From a virus, in UHGV virus genome UHGV-0030812: a stretch of DNA of 11,091 nt. One strand, given 5' to 3'. Below are positions 1-11,091 of the stretch, in pieces. Numbering within the stretch: position 1 is the first letter of the stretch; each line of letters starts with the position of its first letter. Under the pieces are notes generated by a model. It was not told the origin of the DNA. It saw only the letters and a list, made by a program, of their open reading frames with translations, and searched no databases. The position numbers and the translations under genes were made by a program.

Positions 1-87
1 GTCATTATTCTCTGCGGTATCCGTTTTGCCGCCGAGATCATCGTGCCGTTTATTCTCGCATTATTTATTGCTGTTATATATAACTAA
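1..87 (+). CDS. 3' end of a gene running in from the left edge (last 28 codons, ...VIILCGIRFAAEIIVPFILALFIAVIYN*); probably chromosomal flank encoding a membrane protein
   Basis: Frame 1 is open from the window edge to TAA at 85-87; the tail is strongly hydrophobic. Too short to appear in the ORF track. Identity not recognised. Confidence 0.3.
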   Translation, partial: VIILCGIRFAAEIIVPFILALFIAVIYN

Positions 88-151
88 TTTCACTTAACGC
101 ATTGATTTAATTAAATAATTTGCACTACAAAAAGTGCCATAAATCGCAAAA

Positions 152-174
152 TGACTACACCAGTGACTACACCG
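152..174 (+). repeat. Left copy of a 23-bp direct repeat TGACTACACCAGTGACTACACCG (internally a tandem of GTGACTACACC); candidate integrase arm-type site near the element boundary
   Basis: Identical 23-mer recurs at 10865-10887 in the same orientation; looser similarity (GAAACAA / GGAACAA motifs) continues about 50 bp to the right of both copies. Confidence 0.7.
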
Positions 175-282
175 TTCGGTGCACTGTATGAAACAACGTG
201 GAACAAATAGACACAAGAAATATACAGGCGGGTCATCTTTCCAGGGGGAAGCGCGCTAATTCATGAGGGGCGTTAATGTTGA

Positions 283-437
283 TATGGGGATCCCCATAAC
301 GGGGCTACCGGATTTTTTTTCCGGTTAACTGTTAATCAGGCTGGTGGGCTTTACCTGTTTTGTAGGAGTGGTCATTATGACCATTCAGACAATGACCTTA
401 ATCAGAACTTTTCGCTAAAAAATGACGTTGGTCACGT
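283..437. promoter_or_regulatory. Non-coding stretch packed with palindromes: TATGGGGATCCCCATA (283-298), CCGGA-T8-CCGG (311-327), GGTCATTATGACC (369-381), GACGTtggtcACGTC (423-437)
   Basis: Inverted repeats read directly from the sequence; no ORF of 60 aa or more on either strand. Function (operators, packaging or recombination accessory sites, RNA structure) is not assignable from sequence alone. Confidence 0.4.
416..437 (-). terminator. Weak candidate intrinsic terminator downstream of the 93-aa gene
   Basis: On the minus strand, hairpin GACGUgaccaACGUC (5-bp stem) is followed by AUUUUUUA. The stem is short, so this is tentative. Confidence 0.3.
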
Positions 438-490
438 CGTCCGGAAAGCACAAAATCCCGTCAATTTTTAATTAACGGTTAAACCGTCTT

Positions 491-540
491 TTGTCACGGC
501 GTGTCACTGGTTGTCACTCTCCGTCACGGTATGTCGCTAC
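491..540. repeat. Five tandem 10-bp repeats with a GTCAC core (ttGTCACggc / gtGTCACtgg / ttGTCACtct / ccGTCACggt / atGTCGCtac)
   Basis: Exact 10-bp periodicity (one helical turn) immediately 3' of the 93-aa gene; typical of a protein-binding array (iteron, arm-site or operator array). Confidence 0.6.
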
Positions 541-543
541 TCG

Positions 544-825
544 TTAACGCCGTAACCGCTCCGGCTTCTTCCAGTGGTACGTAATTTTCTCCGTTTCCCG
601 ATACAGTGCCACGCGGCGATTGTAGGCCAGCATTTCAAGAACGCGGATCCGTATGTTGCGCATATCCACATCATTAAGCTGGATACCATCACGGCGCATC
701 ACCTCAGCAACAACACGCGCATAATTTTCGGCTGTCACGCTGTCCGGCTGCGTGGCCTGTTCGTCAGTCTGCTGGCTGATTCCACCAGCACGGCGGATTA
801 ATCCCAGTATTTCGGCTTCTGTCAT
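544..825 (-). CDS. Hypothetical protein, 93 aa
   Basis: ORF with ATG at 825-823 and TAA at 546-544, preceded by a weak GGGTG Shine-Dalgarno. No family recognised. Lies just outside cos copy 1. Confidence 0.55.
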   Translation of the reverse strand: MTEAEILGLIRRAGGISQQTDEQATQPDSVTAENYARVVAEVMRRDGIQLNDVDMRNIRIRVLEMLAYNRRVALYRETEKITYHWKKPERLRR

Positions 826-857
826 TGTGCACCCATCGTTCTGATTGTCTGGTGTCG

Positions 858-925
858 TCGGGTCCTTCCTGGAATTATGGCCCGTTACGGGGCGGCGACC
901 TCGCGGTTTTTCGCTATTTATGAGC
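858..925 (+). other. Lambda-type cos site, copy 1 (cosQ-like GGGTCCTTCCTGG, cosN GTTACGGGGCGGCGACCTCGCGG, then TTTTTCGCTATTTATGA), plus-strand orientation
   Basis: Contains the 12-nt lambda cohesive-end sequence GGGCGGCGACCT (890-901) within the symmetric cosN. Roughly 85-90% identical to the reverse complement of 1621-1690. Lambda match is recalled from memory of the lambda genome ends. Confidence 0.7.
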
Positions 926-938
926 TTTTTTAGAGGGA

Positions 939-1088
939 GGTTGTTGTTTAATTGTTTGTCATATCCATTTGATAACTAAGTAAAAATAAAGAGCAATACA
1001 ACAACCTGATAGTGTTTTTTTGATGCTAAAAATAAAAAAATGCTAATTGAATCAAATAGTTTTAAAAAAATACGTGGTTGTTGTATTG
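939..1088. repeat. AT-rich segment carrying three copies of GGTTGTTGT(A/T)TTG (939-954 plus, 994-1006 minus, 1076-1088 plus); cosB-like terminase/accessory-protein binding region adjacent to cos copy 1
   Basis: Repeats read directly; A-tracts throughout (930-1110). The arrangement (repeats in both orientations next to cosN) resembles the R-site layout of lambda cosB. Confidence 0.45.
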
Positions 1089-1118
1089 CGTATTTGATGG
1101 CGTAACAGAAAGTGATTT

Positions 1119-1559
1119 TTAACTTTGCTGTTCTGTAACGACTGATTGTTCCATGCTGGCACGGCGAACGCTTACGGCATGACGCCACCCAGCCAGAAAG
1201 CCAGCCATTTTATTTCGTGCCTTGCTCACATCTTCCGGTGAATAGCCGTAAATCTGCAAACCTTCATCAAATCGATGTTCTGTTTCTTCACTGGAGTACT
1301 CGTCACGCTCAGATGAAAGCAGCCTGGCAAACATAATTTTTTCCAGCGCACTGGTTTCTACGTGATATCTGATGGTCTCAAGACGGCTTTTACCTGAAGA
1401 CCAAAGCAATGTATGCCCGATGTGATAACCGCCAGACTTTCCGCGATCCGCATTAAGATACGGCATCCCCTGTTTGGTCCATGCGCGAATAGTGGTTCTG
1501 TTAACCTTGAAATGTTCAGCTATTTCCTGCTGACTTACAAAACAAGCTTTATCAATCAT
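1119..1559 (-). CDS. Small terminase subunit homologue, lambda Nu1-like (N-terminal winged-HTH); possibly a packaging-redirection factor
   Basis: 146 aa; N-terminus VSQQEIAEHFKVNRTTIRAWTKQGMPYL parallels lambda Nu1 KKQLADIFGASIRTIQNWQEQGMPVL. ATG at 1559-1557 sits about 60 nt downstream of cos copy 2, as Nu1 does relative to cos in lambda. The C-terminal half is not obviously Nu1-like. Confidence 0.65.
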   Translation of the reverse strand: MIDKACFVSQQEIAEHFKVNRTTIRAWTKQGMPYLNADRGKSGGYHIGHTLLWSSGKSRLETIRYHVETSALEKIMFARLLSSERDEYSSEETEHRFDEGLQIYGYSPEDVSKARNKMAGFLAGWRHAVSVRRASMEQSVVTEQQS

Positions 1560-1620
1560 AATGTTACCTTAACTGCATGGTTAAATATTAATCAAGTGGT
1601 GGTGGTGTCATCTTCACGGA

Positions 1621-1690
1621 AAAACGTCATAAATAGCGAAAACCCGCGAGGTCGCCGCCCCGTAACGGGTCCATATGCCGGAAAGGACCC
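1621..1690 (-). other. Lambda-type cos site, copy 2 (minus-strand orientation), directly upstream of the Nu1-like gene
   Basis: Reverse complement reads GGGTCCTTTCCGG...GTTACGGGGCGGCGACCTCGCGGGTTTTCGCTATTTATGA, which matches the remembered lambda right-end/left-end junction almost base for base apart from about 10 nt between cosQ and cosN. Confidence 0.8.
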
Positions 1691-1692
1691 AT

Positions 1693-1716
1693 AAAAAAAA
1701 GCCGGATTTCTCCGGC
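1693..1716 (-). terminator. Rho-independent terminator ending the capsid operon
   Basis: On the minus strand, GCCGGAgaaaUCCGGC (perfect 6-bp GC-rich stem) is followed by U8; lies 7 nt downstream of the 137-aa gene stop. Confidence 0.8.
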
Positions 1717-1722
1717 CTTGTC

Positions 1723-2136
1723 TCAGATGGTTTTCAGTATGCGATCGATGTCGCCGTCATCGCCCTGGTTTCTGCCATCGTATGCCATGCCAGCTGATAC
1801 GGCTTGCGGGCTGTGCATGTCCATAAAGTTTTCAAAGGCTGCGGTAAGTTCCGGCGCAACCTTCGGACGTTCCTGCTCTATGGTCATGCTAAGGATGCTT
1901 TTAGCCGTACCAACATCGATACAAGGCACGTTTGCCATTGCACGTAACAGCGGCTGATAGTCGCCAGATTCATCAAGCGCCATAATCGCATCAGCGCGCG
2001 GCTTGTCCTGCTCTTCCAGTTTGTTGAGTTGATATACGGCCTCGTAGGTTGATAAACCTCTGTCAGCCATTGCCCGCGCTTCTGCTTTAAATTTACTCGC
2101 CAGCGGTAGCGCCATGATGCTTTCATTCGTTGCCAT
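1723..2136 (-). CDS. Hypothetical protein, 137 aa, last gene of the capsid operon
   Basis: ATG at 2136-2134 with AGGGGA Shine-Dalgarno, 12 bp after the gpD-like stop. No family recognised. Confidence 0.6.
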   Translation of the reverse strand: MATNESIMALPLASKFKAEARAMADRGLSTYEAVYQLNKLEEQDKPRADAIMALDESGDYQPLLRAMANVPCIDVGTAKSILSMTIEQERPKVAPELTAAFENFMDMHSPQAVSAGMAYDGRNQGDDGDIDRILKTI

Positions 2137-2148
2137 CGTTTCCCCTGC

Positions 2149-2484
2149 TTATCGCGCCAGCGGCTGAACGGATACGCCAGAACCCGCAAAGGCGGCGCAT
2201 TTTTTCGCGTCAGTGTCGGCGCTCTCAGGCCAGTTTACGGCGGCGATATTAAATATCCCCGTCTTGTAACACTGTGCTGATTTCTGCTTTGACGTGTCCA
2301 CGGGGTACGAGGTCAGATAAACAGCCTTGCCAGATTCCTGACCATCCCACGGCTTAAACTCGCCATTGTCCGCCAGCATCAGCGGGGTAAATTCCTGAAT
2401 AACGCCAGCATCAGCGGCAAAATGTACCAGCGTCGTGGCGACCTGCTGACTGCCTGCAAATAACTCAATGTATGGAGTGTCCAT
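2149..2484 (-). CDS. Head decoration protein, lambda gpD-like
   Basis: 111 aa; FTPLMLADNGEFKPWDG and YKTGIFNIAAVNWPESADTDAKKCAAFAGSGVSV align with lambda gpD MTPLMLD...VAWDG and [40 protein letters not shown] Shine-Dalgarno precedes the ATG. Confidence 0.8.
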   Translation of the reverse strand: MDTPYIELFAGSQQVATTLVHFAADAGVIQEFTPLMLADNGEFKPWDGQESGKAVYLTSYPVDTSKQKSAQCYKTGIFNIAAVNWPESADTDAKKCAAFAGSGVSVQPLAR

Positions 2485-2495
2485 AGAATCCCCCG

Positions 2496-3551
2496 TTAAC
2501 CAATTTTGACGGTAACAAATTTGCGAATATCTGCCGGTACCGGCTGCGGTGCACTGTGTGTCTGCACGTACTCAATCGCCGGATCTCCGTCCTCAATCCA
2601 GTTTTTCGGGTAGTACATGTTTTGCGTTGCCCCCGTTCTTACTGCGTCCTGATCCATAATCGCACCATAGGCCACCAGCCCTTTATTGTTGGTGTTGCCC
2701 AGGACAAGCAAATCAGGCTCAAGGAAATATTTTTCTGTGCCGTCGCTGTCGGCGTATTTGCCGGAATAGACGATAAGGGCAATATCGCCCAGATAGCCTT
2801 TAAAGCTCACCACTTCGCCCAAGTTTTTACATGCCAGCTCTGCGGCGGACTCTGAACCACGGGAAAGATCGTACAGCTCACGGAATTTTTTAAAGCTGCG
2901 TAACGTTCGCCATACCTCAGCGCCCATAATCATGACGTTGGCGGGGCAACCTGCCTGATCGGCGTATAGTTCGATATCATAGATTGGATCGTGGATTTCT
3001 TTGTCCTGCTCTGACCATTTTTTACCGTCGGCCTGCTCTATGATGTTTTTTTCCGGTATCTTCCAGTCGATTTCATAGCGCTCTATGCCTTCGCCCTCAA
3101 TGATGTTTTTTCCGGTCGTTACCGCATTTACCGCCAGCCATTCCACGCGCGCTTTTATGGCGTTTATCTGGCGGCGCATATTGCCAGTAATCAGGCGCAT
3201 ACGGCGATAGGTAGGGTCGTTAAGCTGTGCCGGATCTTCTCCAGCCATGCGCATGATGGTTTTCGTTGGATCGATTTCGTGCTTTGGCTTCATGTAGCCA
3301 GGTTTGATTGTGCTGGTTTCGTACCCTTTATCGCGCTGAACCTGGCTACCCACCATAGGCGAACAAAACGCCGACATGGTGACTTCTTCAATGTCCAGGG
3401 TATCCAGCATGATGTTTTGCGTGCTGAATGTCGCCACGTTCGGGAAAAACAGCGTGGTAAACAGCGGACTGAATTTAAATTCCGCAATATCCCCGCGATT
3501 CAGGTACGCAAAAAGCTGGTTAGTGTTAAGTGCCATTGCTTTTACTGTCAT
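2496..3551 (-). CDS. Major capsid protein, lambda gpE family
   Basis: 351 aa, colinear with lambda gpE (341 aa) along its whole length: FKFSPLFTTLFFP / FKFDPLFLRLFF, PGYMKPKHEIDP / PGYVKPKHEVNP, EDPAQLNDPTYRRMRLI / EDPQNLADPAYRRRRII, VLGNT, YPKNW. Start ATG overlaps the upstream stop as TAATG. Confidence 0.9.
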   Translation of the reverse strand: MTVKAMALNTNQLFAYLNRGDIAEFKFSPLFTTLFFPNVATFSTQNIMLDTLDIEEVTMSAFCSPMVGSQVQRDKGYETSTIKPGYMKPKHEIDPTKTIMRMAGEDPAQLNDPTYRRMRLITGNMRRQINAIKARVEWLAVNAVTTGKNIIEGEGIERYEIDWKIPEKNIIEQADGKKWSEQDKEIHDPIYDIELYADQAGCPANVMIMGAEVWRTLRSFKKFRELYDLSRGSESAAELACKNLGEVVSFKGYLGDIALIVYSGKYADSDGTEKYFLEPDLLVLGNTNNKGLVAYGAIMDQDAVRTGATQNMYYPKNWIEDGDPAIEYVQTHSAPQPVPADIRKFVTVKIG

Positions 3552-3757
3552 TATTCCCCCCCGTGAACCTGATTCATACCCAGCGCCGCGCGTAAATAGG
3601 CGCGTACCTGCCAGCCTGTTGACGGCTCAACCATCGCCAGCGGATCAAGTCCTGCCGCAATGCCTGCTTTTACGTTCTGCTGGTGGCGTTCCTTGAGCGC
3701 CTTCACGATGTCGGGGCTTATGTACACCGAAACACCGCCTTTTTTCTCTTCAGCCAT
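3551..3757 (-). CDS. Hypothetical protein, 68 aa, first gene of the capsid operon
   Basis: ATG at 3757-3755 with AAGAGGAA Shine-Dalgarno; its stop overlaps the capsid gene start, indicating translational coupling. No family recognised. Confidence 0.55.
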   Translation of the reverse strand: MAEEKKGGVSVYISPDIVKALKERHQQNVKAGIAAGLDPLAMVEPSTGWQVRAYLRAALGMNQVHGGE

Positions 3758-3785
3758 AGTAAGAAATTCCTCTTTGACTTAAAAA

Positions 3786-3841
3786 ATTATAACTGGATGT
3801 TCATCCAGTTCTGATTATAATCAGGATTGCATTTTGTGCAA
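3786..3841 (-). promoter_or_regulatory. Capsid-operon promoter with three contiguous palindromes: AACTGGATG-tt-CATCCAGTT (3791-3810), CTGATTATAATCAG (3811-3824), TTGCAttttgTGCAA (3827-3841)
   Basis: Minus-strand TATAAT (3791-3786) about 30 nt upstream of the orf68 ATG; the palindromes overlap and follow the -10/-35 region, consistent with a tightly regulated late promoter. Confidence 0.5.
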
Positions 3842-3921
3842 TGATATTGAGTTGTGTTGCAAATTATGAAATGATGATCCCGCTCATGTGTGTCAGTGCA
3901 CCAAAAAGCCTCATATGCAAA

Positions 3922-3959
3922 AGCCCGATAAGCCACCTCTGACCTTATCGGGCTTTTTT
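3922..3959 (+). terminator. Strong hairpin plus T-tract, best read as a plus-strand intrinsic terminator (possibly bidirectional)
   Basis: AGCCCGATAAG-(11 nt loop)-CTTATCGGGCT is a perfect 11-bp stem followed by TTTTTT on the plus strand. No annotated plus-strand gene lies upstream. Confidence 0.55.
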
Positions 3960-4134
3960 ATCTGCCTGCAAAGATGTCGAACGAAAATTAACCACAACCA
4001 TCATCTTTTTTGCATCAAAACAATTAAAAACAATAAATTACGCTCATGATGATGATGACGATAAAATCACAAAAATGCGCTTTTTTCCGCGCCTCCCGCC
4101 CCGTGTTCAGGCCCACCCCGCCAGGAGGACCCGT

Positions 4135-4156
4135 AAAAAAGCCGGATTGCTCCAGC
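4135..4156 (-). terminator. Rho-independent terminator after the SSB-like gene
   Basis: On the minus strand, GCUGGAgcaaUCCGGC (6-bp stem with one G-U pair) is followed by U6. Sequence is related to the 1693-1716 terminator. Confidence 0.55.
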
Positions 4157-4172
4157 TTCTGTCACTCGTCGC

Positions 4173-4595
4173 TTAAAACGGTATGTTATCCCCGTACGGA
4201 TCATCATTCCCCGCCTGTTGTTTTGCCCTGTTCAGCGCGTCAGTAGCCTGGCCCTGTTGACCTTTTTTGCCGCCCAGTCGCGCCGTTCGCGCACTGATTA
4301 CACTGTCTGCGATAACCTGCCAGCCCTGCCGCGTTTCTCCGTTCTGCCCAGTCCACTGGCTGATCTGCATGTTACCCGCCACGCTCAGGAGTTCACCCTT
4401 GCGGTGCCTTTCCAGTGCTTCGGCCTGTCTGCCAAATGCCAGGACGGATAACCACATCGTCGCCGTTCCGTCATCTGCCTGGCTGCACGGAAGGGGGACC
4501 GCCATACGCGCCAGCGTCATCGGTGTGCCCTTGCTGGTCTGTTTTACCTGCGGGTCGTCCACCAGCCGCCCGTAAGCTGCTATCTGTGCTGTCAT
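4173..4595 (-). CDS. ssb: Single-stranded DNA-binding protein (SSB) homologue
   Basis: 140 aa; the OB-fold core WLSVLAFGRQAEALERHRKGELLSVAGNMQISQWTGQNGETRQGWQVIAD parallels E. coli SSB [51 protein letters not shown]. The acidic C-terminal tip DDPYGDNIPF resembles the SSB DDDIPF tail. Confidence 0.8.
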   Translation of the reverse strand: MTAQIAAYGRLVDDPQVKQTSKGTPMTLARMAVPLPCSQADDGTATMWLSVLAFGRQAEALERHRKGELLSVAGNMQISQWTGQNGETRQGWQVIADSVISARTARLGGKKGQQGQATDALNRAKQQAGNDDPYGDNIPF

Positions 4596-4870
4596 TATTC
4601 CACCTCTCCGGTTTTAACGTTGATGGTTGTTACCTGTTCCGCTTCGGCAATCTCCCGCTCTGTCAGCGTGGCAAAATTTGCCGCCGTCGTGGTCATGAAT
4701 GCGCTTATCAGTTCGGGATGTGCTTTCGCGTATCCTTCCCCCGCGTGGCGGTCTATCGTTCTGATTGCCACCTTTAAAGCGTGCTCTGTCATGTCTAACG
4801 CGCGATATTTCGGTTCTGTTCTGTCTCTGCGTTTTTTGAGTGATTTATTAAATTTCCCTGAAGTGTGCAT
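4595..4870 (-). CDS. Hypothetical protein, 91 aa, translationally coupled to ssb
   Basis: ATG at 4870-4868; stop overlaps the ssb ATG as TAATG. No family recognised. Confidence 0.55.
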   Translation of the reverse strand: MHTSGKFNKSLKKRRDRTEPKYRALDMTEHALKVAIRTIDRHAGEGYAKAHPELISAFMTTTAANFATLTEREIAEAEQVTTINVKTGEVE

Positions 4871-4919
4871 ATTTATTTTTACCCCCTCGTTTAAAAAGTT
4901 TTGAGTTGTGCCTCCCCTT

Positions 4920-5145
4920 GTCTACCTTATCTACCTTAGTGGCCCTCATACCAGTAATGGCGCGGCTTTCAGCGGGGTAGAGTGCTTTTATCCACTATCT
5001 ACCCCGTGTCTACCTCCCTGTCTGATTCAGGTAAAATCAGGTAGAGAGGGTAGATAGTGGGTAGACAGTAAAAAAAGGCTATCTACCTAACTTAATGCAC
5101 TGAATTAAATGTATTTTTCTTTACTCAGGTAGACAGGGTAGACAG
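4920..5145. repeat. Iteron cluster, candidate replication origin: at least 10 copies of GGTAGA(C/G/T)AG / (C/T)TCTACC in both orientations
   Basis: Copies at 4920-4926, 4929-4935, 4976-4982, 4997-5004, 5008-5014, 5040-5046, 5049-5057, 5059-5068, 5081-5087, 5128-5136 and 5137-5145. Located immediately 3' of the primase/helicase gene, the usual position of a satellite ori. Confidence 0.6.
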
Positions 5146-5158
5146 CAATTACAAAAAA

Positions 5159-6913
5159 TTATAAAAACGCGTCGCACTCGTCTGTTGTTATTGCGTTAGT
5201 CTGCGTTACTCCCTTAACTTTCCGCGTAATATATTCATGTCCGTAAACTTTCGCGGCTGGCTTCATAGCCTTGCCAAAGTCATTTACGTTTAGCGGTTTG
5301 CTCCTGCCTGCGTACGCCATAAACGCCAGATAGACGCGGTAAAGACTGTTTCTGGTCGTGTACTTCACTGAATCGCCACCGCCGCCCATCATCAGGCCGC
5401 GTGCTTCCTCCAGAAAATTCAGGAACTGGCAAAACTCAATAACCGGATCCGTCTGTTGCTTTATTGCCAGAGCTTCATCACCGTCACGCTGTTCCAGTAG
5501 TAAAGCCCTCGCCTTCTCAGGGTCGGTAAAGTTCGCCAGCAATCGGCGGATAATGACAGGGATTTCAGCCGCGATCTTTTCCGGTAGCTCCCTGTCTTTT
5601 TCGGCCTCACTGACGATATTGTCGAAACGGAAAATCACGCGACGACGTGCCACACCTCCGGCCCGTTCGGTGAATATCATCGGGTTATTGTTGGTCGCCA
5701 GCACCACCGCCCTGATTACAGCCGTGAAACGCTTTTCGTATTTCGGGTTAATTTCCACGGGGTCACCGCCCGTGATTTTCTTGATGCCCGTTCCTTCGCC
5801 TGTATATTTCGGCTGGTCAGCCAGGACGATAAGACGACTCCCGACAACCTGCGCACGTCCACCAGCATCATCAAGCGATGTCATTTCAGCGCTTACCGTG
5901 TTCTGTTTCCCTGCCAGAAGGCTGGCTATGTGTGTGAATGTACTTTTACCGCTCCCGCCGTCTCCGGTGGCCTCAATAAACATCTGCCAGTCGTACCGGT
6001 TCGCCATAATCATGTACAGCGCGGCACATATACGCATCATCTTGCGCGGGTCTTTTCCGGCTGCGTGCTCAAGCCATTTATGAAAGTTTGGCGCGTTATC
6101 GCGGATGTTCTCCCCTGGTGCTGGTGGCGTGTACTCAATGCCGTTGTGCGTGGTGATCCAGTTCTCCGGCGTGTGCGGGGAAAATTCCCCCGTTTTCAGG
6201 TCAAGCGCACCATTGGCGAACGGCAACAAATCGCCGGACGGCTCGCCCATTGGTTCGGCAATAACTTTTAACGCTTCCACGGCGTTATTGATTACGCGCT
6301 TGCTGAAAGTGGCCCTGTGCTCTGAATAGATCGCCACCATTTCGCGGCTAAGTTCCATTGTGCTGACCGGACACCATACCCCGCCGCGCCATACGTGAAC
6401 GATTTCACTTTCAGGATGTACGCAAACGCCATCAAAGCGATCGGCAAGCAGCTGCGCGCGCTCACTGTCCGCCATCTGCGAAAGTTGCGCCTTTTGCTTT
6501 ACCGGAAGCTCAATGACCAGACCATCAGAAAGATTCTGGCGCTCACGGGCCAGATATTCGCGCCAGTTCTCCACCTTCTGACCGTGCATACCATCAGGGT
6601 AAAAATTTGCATCCTGTACGCCTGCCGCCGCCAGCTTCTGACCAATCGCCTTTATCATTACTGGCGCAAGATATCCGGCCCTGAATATGCGCACGGATTT
6701 TCTGCCTTCCGGCACAATTTGCAGCTTATCCAGTTCGGATAACTGCTGCTCCCCAAGCCACACAGGAGGCTCATTATCTCCGGCCATACGCGCGTCATGT
6801 TCCTGCCATTGTTTTGCGTGTGACCAGGCATCACTACCCGCAAAAATAATGACTTCTGTTTCTTTGTGTTTTATGCCGCGTGACTGCTGTTTTACGTTCG
6901 GTGCCAGTTTCAT
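5159..6913 (-). CDS. Replication initiator: primase fused to a P4-alpha / D5-type SF3 helicase domain (Pri-Rep)
   Basis: 584 aa; Walker A GDGGSGKST and downstream LIVLAD-type Walker B in the C-terminal half. Size and layout typical of P4-family/PICI primase-helicases. ATG overlaps the upstream stop (ATGA). Confidence 0.85.
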   Translation of the reverse strand: MKLAPNVKQQSRGIKHKETEVIIFAGSDAWSHAKQWQEHDARMAGDNEPPVWLGEQQLSELDKLQIVPEGRKSVRIFRAGYLAPVMIKAIGQKLAAAGVQDANFYPDGMHGQKVENWREYLARERQNLSDGLVIELPVKQKAQLSQMADSERAQLLADRFDGVCVHPESEIVHVWRGGVWCPVSTMELSREMVAIYSEHRATFSKRVINNAVEALKVIAEPMGEPSGDLLPFANGALDLKTGEFSPHTPENWITTHNGIEYTPPAPGENIRDNAPNFHKWLEHAAGKDPRKMMRICAALYMIMANRYDWQMFIEATGDGGSGKSTFTHIASLLAGKQNTVSAEMTSLDDAGGRAQVVGSRLIVLADQPKYTGEGTGIKKITGGDPVEINPKYEKRFTAVIRAVVLATNNNPMIFTERAGGVARRRVIFRFDNIVSEAEKDRELPEKIAAEIPVIIRRLLANFTDPEKARALLLEQRDGDEALAIKQQTDPVIEFCQFLNFLEEARGLMMGGGGDSVKYTTRNSLYRVYLAFMAYAGRSKPLNVNDFGKAMKPAAKVYGHEYITRKVKGVTQTNAITTDECDAFL

Positions 6914-7209
6914 TTTTTACCCCTGAATCCGTTAATCATGGTTTTCAGCTTCTGGATGTTTGCCCGTGCCCTGGCGTTGCTGGTGGGCACGTTATGCGGC
7001 GCGGTCTGTACCAGAGAAAAATCACGCCGGAACTGATAAACAGGCATCACGCAATCATATTCGTAACCTTCACGGCGGTAGGTTACGCGCCGTTCTTCCA
7101 CGCCCTTAATCATTACCGTGCCGCCGTACTGGTCGCGGTAAATATCGCCGCGCGTAAATTTAGGGTGAGTGTTGCCACTGGCAGTTAAGCCAGAATATTT
7201 AAGTTTCAT
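6910..7209 (-). CDS. Hypothetical protein, 99 aa, translationally coupled to the primase gene
   Basis: ATG at 7209-7207 with GGAGAA Shine-Dalgarno; stop overlaps the primase ATG. No family recognised. Confidence 0.55.
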   Translation of the reverse strand: MKLKYSGLTASGNTHPKFTRGDIYRDQYGGTVMIKGVEERRVTYRREGYEYDCVMPVYQFRRDFSLVQTAPHNVPTSNARARANIQKLKTMINGFRGKK

Positions 7210-7279
7210 TATTTTTATTCTCCGGTGTGCTGTTCTTTATATCTGTCGTGCAATAGATCTATTTCTTGCAGTTCCATTA

Positions 7280-7417
7280 TTACAGGCTCAATTTTTGTTT
7301 GTCGCGTTCATTGTCGCCAAGTGTTTCAAGCCATATGCGTAATATTTCCATCATGCTTTCACTGTGAGAAAGTGCAAGAAATGCGCGGTCTATTGTTTCA
7401 AGGTAAATATCACGCAT
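7280..7417 (-). CDS. Small ORF, 45 aa (MRDIYLETIDRAFLALSHSESMMEILRIWLETLGDNERDKQKLSL), absent from the ORF track
   Basis: ATG at 7417-7415 lies 1 nt after the orf73 stop, with GGGGA 5 nt upstream; TAA at 7282-7280. Hand-translated; fills an otherwise empty 200-bp gap in a tightly packed operon. Confidence 0.35.
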   Translation of the reverse strand: MRDIYLETIDRAFLALSHSESMMEILRIWLETLGDNERDKQKLSL

Positions 7418-7418
7418 A

Positions 7419-7640
7419 TTAATCCCCGTCCGTCGTTTTTCTTAAAATAACCTCTGTCACGAAATCAGCATAATCGGCGACGATATTCAGTACATCAAGC
7501 CCCGTTGATTTATATTCTCTCGTGGAAAGTAAGAAAAAAGCCGCTCTAATAAGCTCTGGCATTGACGAAAGCGCATCAGCCGCATCATCAGGAACGCCGG
7601 AAAATTCCTGTTTCAGGGAATTAAAACGATCATCACGCAT
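7419..7640 (-). CDS. Hypothetical protein, 73 aa (or the C-terminal part of a frameshifted longer protein)
   Basis: ATG at 7640-7638 directly after the G9 tract, which could act as its Shine-Dalgarno. No family recognised. Confidence 0.5.
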   Translation of the reverse strand: MRDDRFNSLKQEFSGVPDDAADALSSMPELIRAAFFLLSTREYKSTGLDVLNIVADYADFVTEVILRKTTDGD

Positions 7641-7873
7641 AACCCCCCCCCATTTTCACAATCAGCAATCAGGATGGCTTTAGCCTCATTCAGCGCCATA
7701 TCCGCACTAAGTTGCATAACCGCCAGCGAATGAGGAACGAAAGCCCCTGCATATTCTGTTTCACTGGTGGCGTGCTTATGCGCCATGTCAGCAATAACAG
7801 AAATATCAATAAGCGCGTGCATCAGCGTAGTGAGCGCGGCGGCTGCTGCGTCCGGTGTGGTTTTATTGCACAT
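7613..7873 (-). CDS. Hypothetical protein, 86 aa from the ATG with the AGGAGG Shine-Dalgarno
   Basis: AGGAGG sits 7 nt upstream of the ATG at 7873-7871, so the ORF-track start at 7915 is probably too long. The ATG overlaps the end of the Icd-like gene. Ends ENGGG LCVMIVLIP* right after the G9 tract. Confidence 0.5.
   Translation of the reverse strand: MCNKTTPDAAAAALTTLMHALIDISVIADMAHKHATSETEYAGAFVPHSLAVMQLSADMALNEAKAILIADCENGGGLCVMIVLIP
7643..7651. repeat. Homopolymer C9 (G9 on the coding strand) at the orf86/orf73 junction
   Basis: Read directly; the two ORFs overlap across it in different frames. Confidence 0.9.
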
Positions 7874-8063
7874 GGCACACCTCCTGACGAATACGGGCGG
7901 CGAATACAGCAACACAACCGGACGGGCAACGGCTACGCGCTTCGCGTTCCGTCCAGGCGGTTACGTGGATGATTTGAGATTCTCCGGCACTTAGTGCCAG
8001 AAAACGCCACACAAAGGCAGTTTGTGTGTGCGCCAGACGTGGGGTATGCTGTGTTCCAGCCAT
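7863..8063 (-). CDS. Small protein (66 aa) resembling the Icd-like family of P4-type elements; first gene of the leftward replication operon
   Basis: ATG at 8063-8061 with AGGAG 7 nt upstream. Sequence MAGTQHTPRLAHTQTAFVWRFLALS...TEREARSRCP...FAARIRQE matches my recollection of Icd-like proteins (unverified). The ORF track shows it only as the tail of an implausible 378-aa read-through ORF. Confidence 0.5.
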   Translation of the reverse strand: MAGTQHTPRLAHTQTAFVWRFLALSAGESQIIHVTAWTEREARSRCPSGCVAVFAARIRQEVCHVQ

Positions 8064-8151
8064 AATCGTTACTCCTGTTAACGGTTTGGTTAGACGCCCC
8101 GCTACTGCCGCAAACAGTTCGGGGCGTTGTCGTTTACATCCTCTTACTGAG

Positions 8152-8228
8152 GTGTGATTTAAATTAAATTCAACTGAATCACAGGTCAAGTGTTTTTTGT
8201 GATTCTTTTTTGTGTATACTGAATCACA
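8152..8228. promoter_or_regulatory. Divergent promoter/operator region with two inverted-repeat sites: TGTGATT-N15-TGAATCACA (8153-8183) and TGTGATTC-N14-TGAATCACA (8198-8228)
   Basis: Repeats read directly. They lie between the leftward operon (start 8063) and the rightward RHH gene (start 8251). The second site overlaps a TATACT -10 candidate (8215-8220). Confidence 0.5.
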
Positions 8229-8250
8229 TCTTTTGTTTAGGAGAATGCAC

Positions 8251-8556
8251 ATGGCAAAAAACACTATCAACGACAAATCAAAACAGATTTCAATTCGTAT
8301 CCCACATGATGCTTTTGATGGCATGGAATCCGTAAAACTGGACGGCGAAAGCAACGCCGGATTCATAGTAACCGCCATGCGCGGGGAGATCGCCCGCCGC
8401 CAGGCAGAAGGAAGCAGTGAAAATCCTCTGATTTCTTCTCTCGATGCATTGGCGCAAGTGGAAAAAATTGGTATTAAAGCTACGGAAGAACTCGGGCAAC
8501 TTATCGCCATCGCTCGTGAAGAACTACAGCGCCGCAAGGCCAAAGAATCAGAATAA
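8251..8556 (+). CDS. Ribbon-helix-helix (CopG/Arc-type) DNA-binding protein; candidate repressor of the element
   Basis: 101 aa from the ATG at 8251, with GGAGA 7 nt upstream (the ORF-track GTG start at 8212 is probably too long). N-terminal KQISIRIPHDAFDGMESV...AGFIVTAMRGEIARR fits a beta-strand/helix/helix RHH fold. Divergent from the replication operon. Confidence 0.6.
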   Translation: MAKNTINDKSKQISIRIPHDAFDGMESVKLDGESNAGFIVTAMRGEIARRQAEGSSENPLISSLDALAQVEKIGIKATEELGQLIAIAREELQRRKAKESE

Positions 8557-8598
8557 TCACTATCAGCGCCGTGGTGTGAGGTATTACGGCGCATTGCT

Positions 8599-8787
8599 AT
8601 GCAGGACAACACAATGACCGATAAAGAATTGACCAAAACATTATCACCGGCACGGAAAAGACGGCGCAGAAAGATAGAGCATGAATCAGAAAGATTCGCG
8701 CCATGTGCTTTTGCCCTTGAGCAATTCCTTAAAGAATACAGGGAAAAGCGCTCATTGCAGGTATGGCAACGAACTGAACCAGACTGA
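8599..8787 (+). CDS. Hypothetical small basic protein, 62 aa (KRRRRK motif)
   Basis: ORF downstream of the RHH gene, ending before the 8883-8910 terminator. No convincing Shine-Dalgarno, so weakly supported. Confidence 0.3.
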   Translation: MQDNTMTDKELTKTLSPARKRRRRKIEHESERFAPCAFALEQFLKEYREKRSLQVWQRTEPD

Positions 8788-8882
8788 TTGCATTGCCCAC
8801 CAGCCTGATAGCGGCTATCATCCCCGTGCTTATGTTTGGGATCACACACACAAACGGCGCAGCGGGTTATCTGTTCAGAAAG

Positions 8883-8910
8883 GCGGCTCCATTTCGGGGC
8901 CGCTTTTTTT
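8883..8910 (+). terminator. Rho-independent terminator for the rightward RHH transcript
   Basis: GCGGCTCC-atttc-GGGGCCGC (8-bp stem, one G-U pair) followed by T7. Confidence 0.7.
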
Positions 8911-9056
8911 ATGCCTGAAAAACCCCAATTTTGTGGTTTTCCAGTCTCACCAGGGCGAACGAATCCCCGCCCACGTTCTGGCGTATATTCAATCTTCATG
9001 GTTATAGCTCTGTGTTCAGATGATTGATGTGTGGCGGCTGCGTGCCGCCAGCGTGA

Positions 9057-9245
9057 TTAATGAACTGCCTTGCAGCTATCCTTCCAGGCCAGAACCTCGG
9101 ATAAAGACCAGCCAACGGAACGACCGCTAAGTTTACGACGTGATGGGAATTGTCCGGCCTTTTCCAGGCGGTAGCGGCATGAGCGGCTAAGGCCTGTTAG
9201 CTTTTCGCATTCTTTTTCACGTATAAACCGATCAGTGCTTAACAC
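9057..9245 (-). CDS. alpA: AlpA-family transcriptional regulator (phage/satellite excisionase-like HTH)
   Basis: 62 aa, GTG start with AAGGGGG Shine-Dalgarno. LTGLSRSCRYRLEKAGQFPSRRKLSGRSVGWSLSEVLAW is the canonical AlpA pattern. Immediately upstream of int on the same strand. Confidence 0.85.
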   Translation of the reverse strand: MLSTDRFIREKECEKLTGLSRSCRYRLEKAGQFPSRRKLSGRSVGWSLSEVLAWKDSCKAVH

Positions 9246-9609
9246 TATTGCCCCCTTTCGTTTCTTAAAGAGTCATCAGGTGTCTTATTGTGTCGTATTG
9301 TTCCCGCTAGAGTGATGAATGGCAAATATTGAGGATGTATGATTTACAGAAAATGAAACAGTAAGAATAAAATCTTTTAAATTCATGTTAATACAAAGGC
9401 ATAAAATATTGTTTCATGCCTTTTTTCTCGCTATTTAAAGAGTGATTCGCTAGTGTATAAAAAACCAGTAACACATTAAAAATCAGCTACTTATAAATCC
9501 GTACACTTTTTCGCCTCTTGTTCGTAGTTGTTCCGCATTGTTGCTCATTGTTGCACGTTGTATCTGTTCGCATATCCAGTATGCGCATACTGAAAAAACA
9601 CGAAAAAAA

Positions 9610-10839
9610 TTATTTTCTTCTGGCTACTGGTAGCGTGGTTACGTTTTCATGTGTTCCCGCCAGTATCCCTAACCGCTCCGTCCACATATCCAGCGCATTG
9701 CGTTTAGCATCCAGATAACGGGAATGATTATAAACTCGCTGCATTCCTGGCATCTGGTGGCCTGTAAGCTGCTCCACGACATGCGGATCAACGCCTAAAT
9801 CGTTCAGCATGGTTGTAAAGGTGCGCCGGATGTCATGCAGTGACCAGTGAGGATGATTAAGCCTCCTGTGCGCTAATCTTCCATACTGCGATACGCTGGC
9901 CTCCTGTTTCACTTCCCCCAGCAATAAGCCCGTGTGCCTGTTCTGCTCCACCAGCTGCGTGACGAACGGCAGGATCGCTTCCGGTATGGGCCGGAATATT
10001 GCGACCTTCGTTTTGCTGTGCTCCTTCGGAACGGTCCATAGCATTTCCGTAAAATCCCACTCCCCGATCTCCGATAACCTCAGTTCTACCGTTCTGGCTC
10101 CGAAGACAATCAGGAGGCGGATTAACGCGACGTAGTAAGGGGAGAATATTTTTTTGTCCAGTGCCTGCAATAATTCGCCAAGTTCTTTGTTACTTAAGAC
10201 ACGTTCGCTTATATCCGGTTTTTTCCCAACGTCCGCCACGTTCAGATCGTCCAGAACGTTGCTGATTGCATAGCGCCGCCTACGGCAGAACTTAAGCGCC
10301 TGTTTGCACGCCTGTAGCACGAATCCGGCAGTAACAGGCGTTCGCTTTGCCACCTGGTCAAAACAGGCCAGCCAGTGCCGTAGCTCGCATTTATCCAGCG
10401 GCATAGCACCAATCTGCTGTATTACGTGATTATTAAGTCGCCTTTTCAGGGCGATATAATCCACGCGGTTTTCCTTTACGTAATACTCAAGCCAGTAGGT
10501 GAGCGCATCGCCAACCGTTACGGGCTTTAACGCTTCCTGTACGGTGTAATTCATCTCATGACGTGGATTTTTCCCCTCAGCCAGCCATGTGCGACACTGT
10601 GCGGCTTTTTCCCTGGCTGCTTTCAGGCTCAGATCAGGATAACTTCCCAGCTTAATGCGTTCGGGTCGTGTCTCCCTTCCCGTTCCGGCCCTGTATGTGA
10701 AATACCAGGTCAATTTCCCTGATGTTAAATATTTCACGCTCAGGTTTCCGCCATCACTATAAAACGTGTTTTTCTCCGCTGGCTTACCATGAAGTTTCCT
10801 TAGCAAGGTATCGCTCAGTTTGTTCATTGCTCTGCTCAC
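9610..10839 (-). CDS. int: Tyrosine recombinase, P4-type integrase
   Basis: 409 aa. Catalytic signature: R in ARTVELR, HDIRRTF (H-x-x-R), GHQMPGMQRVYNHSRY (H and Y nucleophile); N-terminal arm-binding-type domain. Start may be GTG at 10839 (AGAGGGGG upstream) or ATG at 10827. Confidence 0.9.
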   Translation of the reverse strand: MSRAMNKLSDTLLRKLHGKPAEKNTFYSDGGNLSVKYLTSGKLTWYFTYRAGTGRETRPERIKLGSYPDLSLKAAREKAAQCRTWLAEGKNPRHEMNYTVQEALKPVTVGDALTYWLEYYVKENRVDYIALKRRLNNHVIQQIGAMPLDKCELRHWLACFDQVAKRTPVTAGFVLQACKQALKFCRRRRYAISNVLDDLNVADVGKKPDISERVLSNKELGELLQALDKKIFSPYYVALIRLLIVFGARTVELRLSEIGEWDFTEMLWTVPKEHSKTKVAIFRPIPEAILPFVTQLVEQNRHTGLLLGEVKQEASVSQYGRLAHRRLNHPHWSLHDIRRTFTTMLNDLGVDPHVVEQLTGHQMPGMQRVYNHSRYLDAKRNALDMWTERLGILAGTHENVTTLPVARRK

Positions 10840-10864
10840 GTTTTACCCCCTCTTTACGAAAAAG

Positions 10865-10887
10865 TGACTACACCAGTGACTACACCG
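10865..10887 (+). repeat. Right copy of the 23-bp direct repeat TGACTACACCAGTGACTACACCG, about 25 bp upstream of the int start
   Basis: Identical to 152-174; followed by GAAACAAG / GGAACAAG motifs as at the left copy. Confidence 0.7.
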
Positions 10888-11091
10888 ATCGTTGCACAAA
10901 GGGCTACAACGTGAAACAAGCTGGAACAAGGAAAATCACAAATCTGTTGATAATCAAAAACATAATGCACAGCCTGAAACATTATGAAACAGCAAAAAAC
11001 ACTAAATGATAAAATGCTGTTATTCTTAACCCGCTGGTGCAACACATGGTCCGCTGGCGAGTGCCGCGTGTACTGGCGGTGTCGATTTTGA

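Follow-up and report, generated by a model that had tools for sequence, protein, structure and literature searches.

The 11,091-nucleotide (nt) stretch of viral genome UHGV-0030812 analyzed here (the window) carries an island inserted into the Escherichia coli gene tqsA. The genes, nearly all on the minus strand, run from a tyrosine integrase gene (int) through a small regulatory region with alpA and an Icd-like gene to a primase/replicase gene (pri-rep) and an iteron origin, followed by a single-strand DNA-binding protein (SSB) gene, ssb, a cluster of phage head-gene homologues, and rppA, which encodes a redirecting phage packaging protein (Rpp). Two lambda-type cos sites flank rppA, and a third cos-like segment separates ssb from the head operon. 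We propose, with a probability of about 0.95, that the window represents a classical Gram-negative cos-type phage-inducible chromosomal island (PICI) of the EcCICFT073 family, which would have entered tqsA by means of its own integrase and whose life cycle would follow that of its near-identical prototype.

The borders of the island are sharp. Joining the flanks across one copy of the 9-bp attachment (att) core TGCTGTTAT restores tqsA, and this empty site is intact (100% coverage and identity) in 5,174 of 5,426 complete E. coli genomes; the element is therefore a precise insertion of 10,946 bp. It ends at the cores at 69-77 and 11015-11023 and not at positions 90 and 10900, as the initial annotation had it. 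E. coli strain 300709 matches the window end to end at a reported identity of 100.0%, with tqsA annotated there as two fragments, and at least 80% of the window is present in 63 complete E. coli genomes. At a distance of about 80 bp from the att cores, the element contains two 76-nt direct repeats, one near each end, which are distinct from the cores themselves and each include a tandem GTGACTACACC. Judging from the Arm-DNA-bind_3 domain of the integrase, these repeats are probably arm-type sites, with the left copy in the P' arm and the right copy in the P arm of attP.

Several features of the island are those of PICIs. It is a small element at a specific att site with a short core duplication, and Gram-negative PICIs measure about 10-15 kb. 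Its int-alpA-pri(rep) backbone points in one direction, with an iteron origin 3' of pri. Open reading frames (ORFs) were scanned against Pfam, PHROG, and NCBIfam, a survey that covered the minus-strand genes and two plus-strand ORFs. Neither the ORF list nor the Pfam and PHROG scans of these ORFs contained a portal, protease, large terminase, tail, or lysis gene, in agreement with the earlier view of the element as a satellite and not a phage. The components named at that time, i.e., int, alpA, the Icd-like gene, the primase, the gpE and gpD homologues, and the cos sites, are all present, as evidenced by the family scans and by two exact copies of the lambda cosN. Thus, a P4/PICI-type integration and replication backbone is indeed combined with lambda-family cos sites and head-gene homologues.

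This combination has a precedent. In a piecewise comparison by alignment with the EcCICFT073 region of E. coli CFT073, the prototype Gram-negative PICI, the gene order was the same from int to the last ORF. At the protein level, the two elements are 99% identical in the primase, 99% in the Nu3-like protein, 98% in RppA, about 98% in the major capsid protein (MCP; via Protein Data Bank [PDB] entry 3BQW), and 92% in the integrase. Moreover, the 2.6 kb from the 68-amino-acid (aa) ORF to the end of rppA are 99% identical at the nucleotide level, cos1 and the inverted cos2 are conserved, and the iteron origin is of the same style, its layout being that known from the origins of E. coli PICIs (PMC6092414, Fig. 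2 legend). Because gene set and order are those of EcCICFT073, which was characterized in 2018-2019, the island is of an already known type, and the proposal of a new satellite lineage falls with this comparison. No sequence in the window contradicts the assignment. What had been described as a chimeric architecture is the very layout by which the EcCICFT073 family of E. coli PICIs is defined, and it carries little weight as a discovery; the island is an ordinary member of a known, experimentally dissected family and no new chimeric type. The earlier remark that the element fits neither the P4-like nor the capsid-forming class cleanly is correct, but it does fit the classical cos-type PICIs.

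The island and its prototype also differ. EcCICFT073 occupies the roxA-phoQ interval and the island tqsA; the small ORFs of the alpA-Icd regulatory region are different; and the island has a 31-bp deletion in one small ORF. Where EcCICFT073 has a PerC-like gene, in the gap from ssb to the head operon, the island has instead the segment of about 170 bp that we call cos3, and this is the one real difference from the prototype.

Table 1. Features of the tqsA island, by position in the window
Feature	Position	Strand	Remarks
attL core TGCTGTTAT	69-77		Left junction inside tqsA; same 9-mer at 11015-11023
Left internal direct repeat with tandem GTGACTACACC	148-223		76 nt, 76% identical to 10861-10936
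Five GTCAC/GTCGC motifs	493-537		Exactly 10-bp spacing; just 3' of last island gene
Conserved hypothetical protein, 93 aa	544-825	-	Last island gene; phrog_1561; same-size gene at this position in EcCICFT073
cos2, inverted lambda-type cos	860-930	+	cosQ GGGTCCT, exact cosN at 890-901; downstream of rpp
rppA, redirecting phage packaging protein, 146 aa	1119-1559	-	Winged helix-turn-helix (wHTH); 98% identical to EcCICFT073 protein at rppA position
cos1, lambda-type cosQ-cosN	1585-1692	-	Exact cosN at 1649-1660; PICI-specific cosB; directly upstream of rppA
Terminator-like hairpin	1698-1719	-	After Nu3-like gene; 9-pair stem, then T-run; consensus match only
Nu3-like scaffolding-domain homologue, 137 aa	1723-2136	-	99% identical to CFT073 protein; assigned to c1501 by gene order
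Head decoration protein homologue (gpD/SHP family), 111 aa	2149-2484	-	PF02924, E=2.6e-17; 37% identical to lambda gpD
MCP homologue, gpE family, 351 aa	2496-3551	-	PF03864 (Phage_cap_E), E=1.9e-51; 44% identical to lambda gpE
Conserved hypothetical protein, 68 aa	3551-3757	-	First gene of head/packaging operon; phrog_3255
cos3, putative cos site	3970-4139	-	About 170 bp, VT1-Sakai/Stx-type lambdoid; cosQ GGGTCCT, variant cosN-like GGGCGGGAGGCG, phage-type cosB side
SSB, 140 aa	4173-4595	-	PF00436, E=4.9e-15
Hypothetical protein, 91 aa	4595-4870	-	phrog_1231
Replication origin	4914-5148		Two opposed iteron sets (TRTCTACCY / GGTAGAnAG) around AT-rich stretch; directly 3' of pri
Primase/replicase (pri-rep), 584 aa	5159-6913	-	D5_N, DUF5906, Pox_D5; 99% identical to EcCICFT073 primase
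DUF4222 protein, 99 aa	6910-7209	-	PF13973, E=1.6e-24
Three small conserved hypothetical ORFs	7280-7417, 7419-7640, 7613-7915	-	phrog_2196; phrog_24341/2512; phrog_5146/2512
Icd-like protein, 66 aa	7863-8063	-	NF033153, 64.7 bits (cutoff 25)
YlcI/YnfO family protein, divergent	8251-8556	+	NF041551, 65 bits; RefSeq annotation
AlpA activator, 62 aa	9057-9245	-	PF05930, E=1.9e-17
Tyrosine integrase, 409 aa	9610-10839	-	Arm-DNA-bind_3 and Phage_integrase; 92% identical to EcCICFT073 integrase
Right internal direct repeat with tandem GTGACTACACC	10861-10936		76 nt, copy of 148-223
attR core TGCTGTTAT	11015-11023		Right junction; shared 9-mer

Packaging signals provide a further link to lambda. The cohesive-end 12-mer of lambda, GGGCGGCGACCT, is found in two exact copies, at 890-901 on the plus strand and at 1649-1660 on the minus strand; by our calculation, about 0.001 exact matches would be expected by chance in 2 x 11 kb. 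Both copies are accompanied by a lambda-like cosQ and flanks. Site cos1 differs from its EcCICFT073 counterpart by one substitution and the length of one T-run, and it matches the published cos1 sequence, which runs into the rppA start codon (supplement, PMC6739421). Site cos2 is the same as in EcCICFT073 across cosQ-cosN, diverges beyond, and matches the published cos2 (supplement, PMC6739421). An Rpp protein together with cos sites that join phage cosQ and cosN to an island-specific cosB is a feature of PICIs.

The 146-aa product of rppA had been described as Nu1-like, and this is correct for its N-terminal wHTH: residues 8-71 alone align with lambda Nu1, at 30% identity. The protein as a whole, however, is an Rpp and not a terminase subunit. 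Its EcCICFT073 counterpart is c1503/RppA (PMC6739421), it matches the solved RppC structure (PDB 6HLK) with an E value of 5.5e-31, and tblastn against 50,697 phage records returned no match. Also, it is not a full-length Nu1 with the C-terminal region for oligomerization and binding of the large terminase subunit (TerL). We therefore rejected its assignment as a true small terminase subunit (TerS).

The biology of the prototype has been worked out in some depth. Lambda, phi80, and the resident CFT073 phage 4 induce alpA of EcCICFT073, and AlpA activates the island (PMC6092414); induction, high-frequency transfer, and helper interference have been shown with these three phages (PMC6092414, PMC6739421), including mobilization by lambda and phi80 (PMC6092414). 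Excision and replication require int and pri-rep, and packaging needs the phage TerS, with cosQ and cosN being lambda-like and cosB different (PMC6092414). RppA has a domain that imitates the DNA-binding domain of TerS and through it binds the TerS of lambda and phi80; the resulting heterocomplex recognizes the cosB of cos1 and no longer the phage cos, which increases island packaging and blocks that of the phage (PMC6739421). HK97, which has an unrelated TerS, is insensitive to Rpp (PMC6739421). Deletion of cos1 lowers transfer, deletion of cos2 slightly raises it, and the double deletion abolishes it (PMC6092414). According to the paper on capsid-forming PICIs (cf-PICIs), about three island copies per capsid are probable (bioRxiv 10.1101/2022.09.08.507074).

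By analogy, a lambdoid helper in lytic growth would turn on alpA in the tqsA island, AlpA would activate the leftward operon, and Int would excise the element. The primase-replicase would then fire the iteron origin next to the 3' end of pri-rep, yielding concatemers. RppA would bind the DNA-binding domain of the helper's small terminase (Nu1 of lambda or phi80), such that the phage cosB would no longer be recognized, and the heterocomplex would be directed to cos1, which lies immediately 5' of rppA and has an island-specific cosB. There, the phage large terminase would cut the lambda-identical cosN, and concatemers would enter phage-made, phage-sized heads while packaging of the phage is blocked; cos2 would serve as an inverted, Rpp-independent, weaker site. 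These steps of helper-dependent transfer are suggested by the 98-99% identity of the relevant parts. As the initial annotation had supposed, the island is almost certainly lambda dependent, given that it shares a packaging module, at 99% identity, with EcCICFT073, which lambda and phi80 mobilize (PMC6092414).

Segment 3970-4139 has no counterpart in EcCICFT073. It shares 87-91% identity with the non-coding Rz-terS interval in VT1-Sakai and in several Shiga toxin 2 (Stx2) phages. A prophage of strain EC69 has a 99.4% identical segment at this same position, directly upstream of genes for a DUF1441 TerS, TerL, and portal. As in the lambda cos, GGGTCCT stands upstream of a G-rich 12-mer, here GGGCGGGAGGCG. 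Unlike cos1 and cos2, the segment keeps phage-type sequence on its cosB side; its orientation is that of cos1. This likeness suggests that the segment is probably a third cos site of different specificity, through which the terminases of DUF1441-TerS lambdoid phages would probably package the island directly. Of 5,426 complete E. coli genomes, 161, one of them from a strain labelled EcN_Sk, contain the ssb-cos3-promoter arrangement (at least 80% coverage), which is therefore a common variant. We found no description of a third or Stx-type cos site in PICIs in the searchable literature. A related case is the helper-embedded PICI 11capE, which is like the tqsA island in size and gene organization, also has a gpE-family capsid gene, and, at the equivalent position, matches the cos region of its helper over a stretch at about 90% identity; 11capE is integrated in the capsid gene of the helper prophage, whereas the island described here lies in chromosomal tqsA (PMC10111431).

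GC-rich hairpins followed by T-runs on the minus strand adjoin cosQ-type sequences at 1698-1719 (before cos1), 3925-3960 (after ssb and before cos3), and 4130-4156 (after cos3), and cos sites are therefore bracketed by terminator-like structures. A consensus terminator scan picked up the first of these three hairpins only.

The head-gene cluster calls for closer attention. PDB entry 3BQW, titled "putative capsid protein of prophage" and taken here to be the CFT073 prophage capsid protein, shares about 98% identity with the MCP homologue of the cluster. The best phage MCP among the 50,697 phage records is 47% identical; the MCP homologue thus belongs to a lineage that is old and specific to islands, and it was not recently captured from lambda, so that "lambda-derived," as the head genes had been called, is not an apt description. 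The decoration protein has the head decoration protein 1TD0 as its best PDB match (E=5.6e-13). For the 137-aa protein, BLASTP against lambda Nu3 gave no match, and PDB and Pfam searches were also blank. Nevertheless, its residues 49-131 align at 36-39% identity with the Nu3/scaffold region of phage 21-like phages (E=2e-5), and its C terminus matches phrog_53 (E=7e-9). It is thus a distant Nu3/scaffold homologue, and the head cluster therefore consists of scaffold-like, capsid, and decoration homologues. The papers on EcCICFT073 that we consulted make no mention of this likeness (PMC6092414, PMC6739421). The 68-aa ORF at the head of the operon is equal in length to lambda gpW, a candidate identity that was rejected because the two share no similarity.

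In EcCICFT073, the capsid gene is c1499 and the head decoration gene is c1500, both of which were described in 2018 together with the two cos sites (PMC6092414). Deletion of either gene leaves transfer and interference unchanged, islands with c1499::cat are still mobilized by lambda and phi80, and the routine marker (tetA) of the published strains is located in c1501 (PMC6092414). Moreover, the packaged DNA is phage sized and the capsids are full size (PMC6092414). Of 29 reference Gram-negative PICIs, 21 have an MCP gene, which is stated to be unnecessary for transfer (PMC10111431). By analogy, the gpE-like, gpD-like, and Nu3-like genes of the tqsA island would be conserved passengers of the EcCICFT073 family, dispensable with lambda or phi80 as the helper. 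The head/packaging module, at 99% identity to EcCICFT073, holds too few substitutions for an estimate of dN/dS (the ratio of nonsynonymous to synonymous substitution rates).

With other helpers, such as phage 21-like phages or Stx-type lambdoid phages with a DUF1441 TerS, the Nu3-like, gpE-like, and gpD/SHP-like trio might conceivably be functional and build or remodel capsids. Members such as the tqsA island would then be partial capsid formers with dual packaging, in which lambda/phi80-type helpers would use the Rpp-dependent cos1 and Stx-type helpers the complete, phage-type cos3. We see this as a long shot.

A stronger proposal, namely, that the island belongs to a new lambda-dependent lineage between PICIs and cf-PICIs, which makes its own shell from MCP, decoration, and scaffold proteins and obtains portal, protease, terminase, and tails from the helper, is very improbable. 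The homologues of all three shell-related proteins are intact, the MCP lineage is old and distinct yet intact across different islands, and the presence of its gene in most reference Gram-negative PICIs suggests selection for some function. However, the lineage is not new but is the prototype PICI family, whose near-identical c1499 and c1500 can be lost without effect and whose lambda-packaged DNA is all of phage size, and the idea that the island brings its own capsid shell thereby loses its footing. In addition, the cf-PICI paper places the EcCICFT073 family in large phage capsids (bioRxiv 10.1101/2022.09.08.507074). The cf-PICIs themselves, exemplified by EcCIEDL933, likewise have an int-alpA-rep backbone and an island-encoded MCP gene; unlike the tqsA island, they encode capsid, protease, portal, head-tail connectors, HNH, TerS, and TerL, taking only tails from the helper (bioRxiv 10.1101/2022.09.08.507074). 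The scanned ORFs include an MCP, a decoration, and a Nu3-like protein only, with no portal, protease, connectors, HNH, or TerS/TerL, and membership in this class was rejected. SaPIbov5, a cos-type PICI of Staphylococcus aureus, has, as cited in PMC6092414, a helper-type cos and an MCP homologue (Ccm), like the tqsA island. As far as that account goes, the SaPIbov5 homologue makes small capsids, whereas the EcCICFT073 family has no such effect and achieves preferential packaging via Rpp (PMC6092414, PMC6739421).

The chance that the island is a P4-like satellite of P2-type phages is minute. The two share an integrase, a small AlpA/Vis-type regulator, an Icd-like gene, a D5-type primase-replicase, and helper dependence for virions, and these P4 counterparts are distant (PMC6092414, discussion). 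On the other hand, no Sid, Psu, Delta, or Eps homologue was found among the scanned ORFs with Pfam and PHROG, which bears out the absence of the sid/delta/psu set reported before; the cos sites are of lambda type (GGGCGGCGACCT twice and one Stx-lambdoid-type segment) and not P2 type; and the island carries an Rpp, which targets lambda Nu1 and redirects packaging, in place of capsid-size redirection. P4 is stated to be unlike PICIs in both structure and gene content (PMC6092414), and we rejected the P4-like class. Equally negligible is descent from a lambdoid prophage that decayed but kept its head genes and cos, since, in spite of phage-derived gpE-, gpD-, and Nu3-like genes and a lambda cosN, the insertion is precise with att cores and an intact integrase, the PICI replication module is complete with its iterons, regulatory, lysis, or tail remnants of a lambdoid phage did not turn up in the scans, identity of the head genes to any phage does not exceed 47%, and the 11-kb organization is conserved across many genomes.

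Some observations nonetheless weigh against the assignment to the EcCICFT073 family as a functional PICI. The integrase is only 92% identical to that of the prototype and is paired with another att site (tqsA versus the roxA-phoQ interval), so excision and integration are predicted from likeness. The function of this particular island is predicted from its near-identity to EcCICFT073, and the role given to cos3 depends on sequence identity to a phage cos region. Also, two changes relative to the closest record, NZ_CP025903.1, could impair some function. First, 31 bp (GAAGCGTTATTAATGCCGTGGCAATTCTTGA) are missing at about position 7292, which cuts a conserved 77-aa gene (234 nt) to the 45-aa ORF at 7280-7417; the deletion may truly distinguish the strains or stem from faulty assembly. 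Second, the homopolymer at 7643-7651 has nine C residues in the window and eight in that record, a difference that could reflect slipped-strand variation or sequencing noise.

The C9 tract stands at the junction of ORFs 7613-7915 and 7419-7640, which match the two halves of one PHROG family (phrog_2512, 154 positions). Frame arithmetic indicates that both ORFs would share one frame if the tract had 7 or 10 C residues, and they might thus be fused. ORFs of more than 200 aa besides the known genes are all antisense to them: one of 241 aa lay outside the scan, and one of 378 aa (7863-8999, minus strand) was scanned without a family match. The latter, which was rejected as a gene, overlaps the YlcI/YnfO gene in antisense, and its last 66 codons, the Icd-like protein, alone are supported; it is rich in Cys, Ser, and Arg, and RefSeq labels part of it an "icd-like" pseudogene. 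A tRNA search of the window found none. A promoter scan found 12 candidates against 14.3 expected in shuffled sequences, i.e., no enrichment, and we therefore make no claims about promoters. The GTCAC/GTCGC motifs possibly form a protein-binding array; a search for an exact three-unit GTCAC-N5 pattern matched the window's own record only and did not match the EcCICFT073 locus.

For the family, two modest consequences lie in the head cluster and in cos3. The presence of a Nu3-like homologue in a dispensable head cluster sharpens the question of what purpose this cluster serves. Further, cos3, if functional, would widen the helper range of EcCICFT073-type islands to relatives of Shiga toxin phages.

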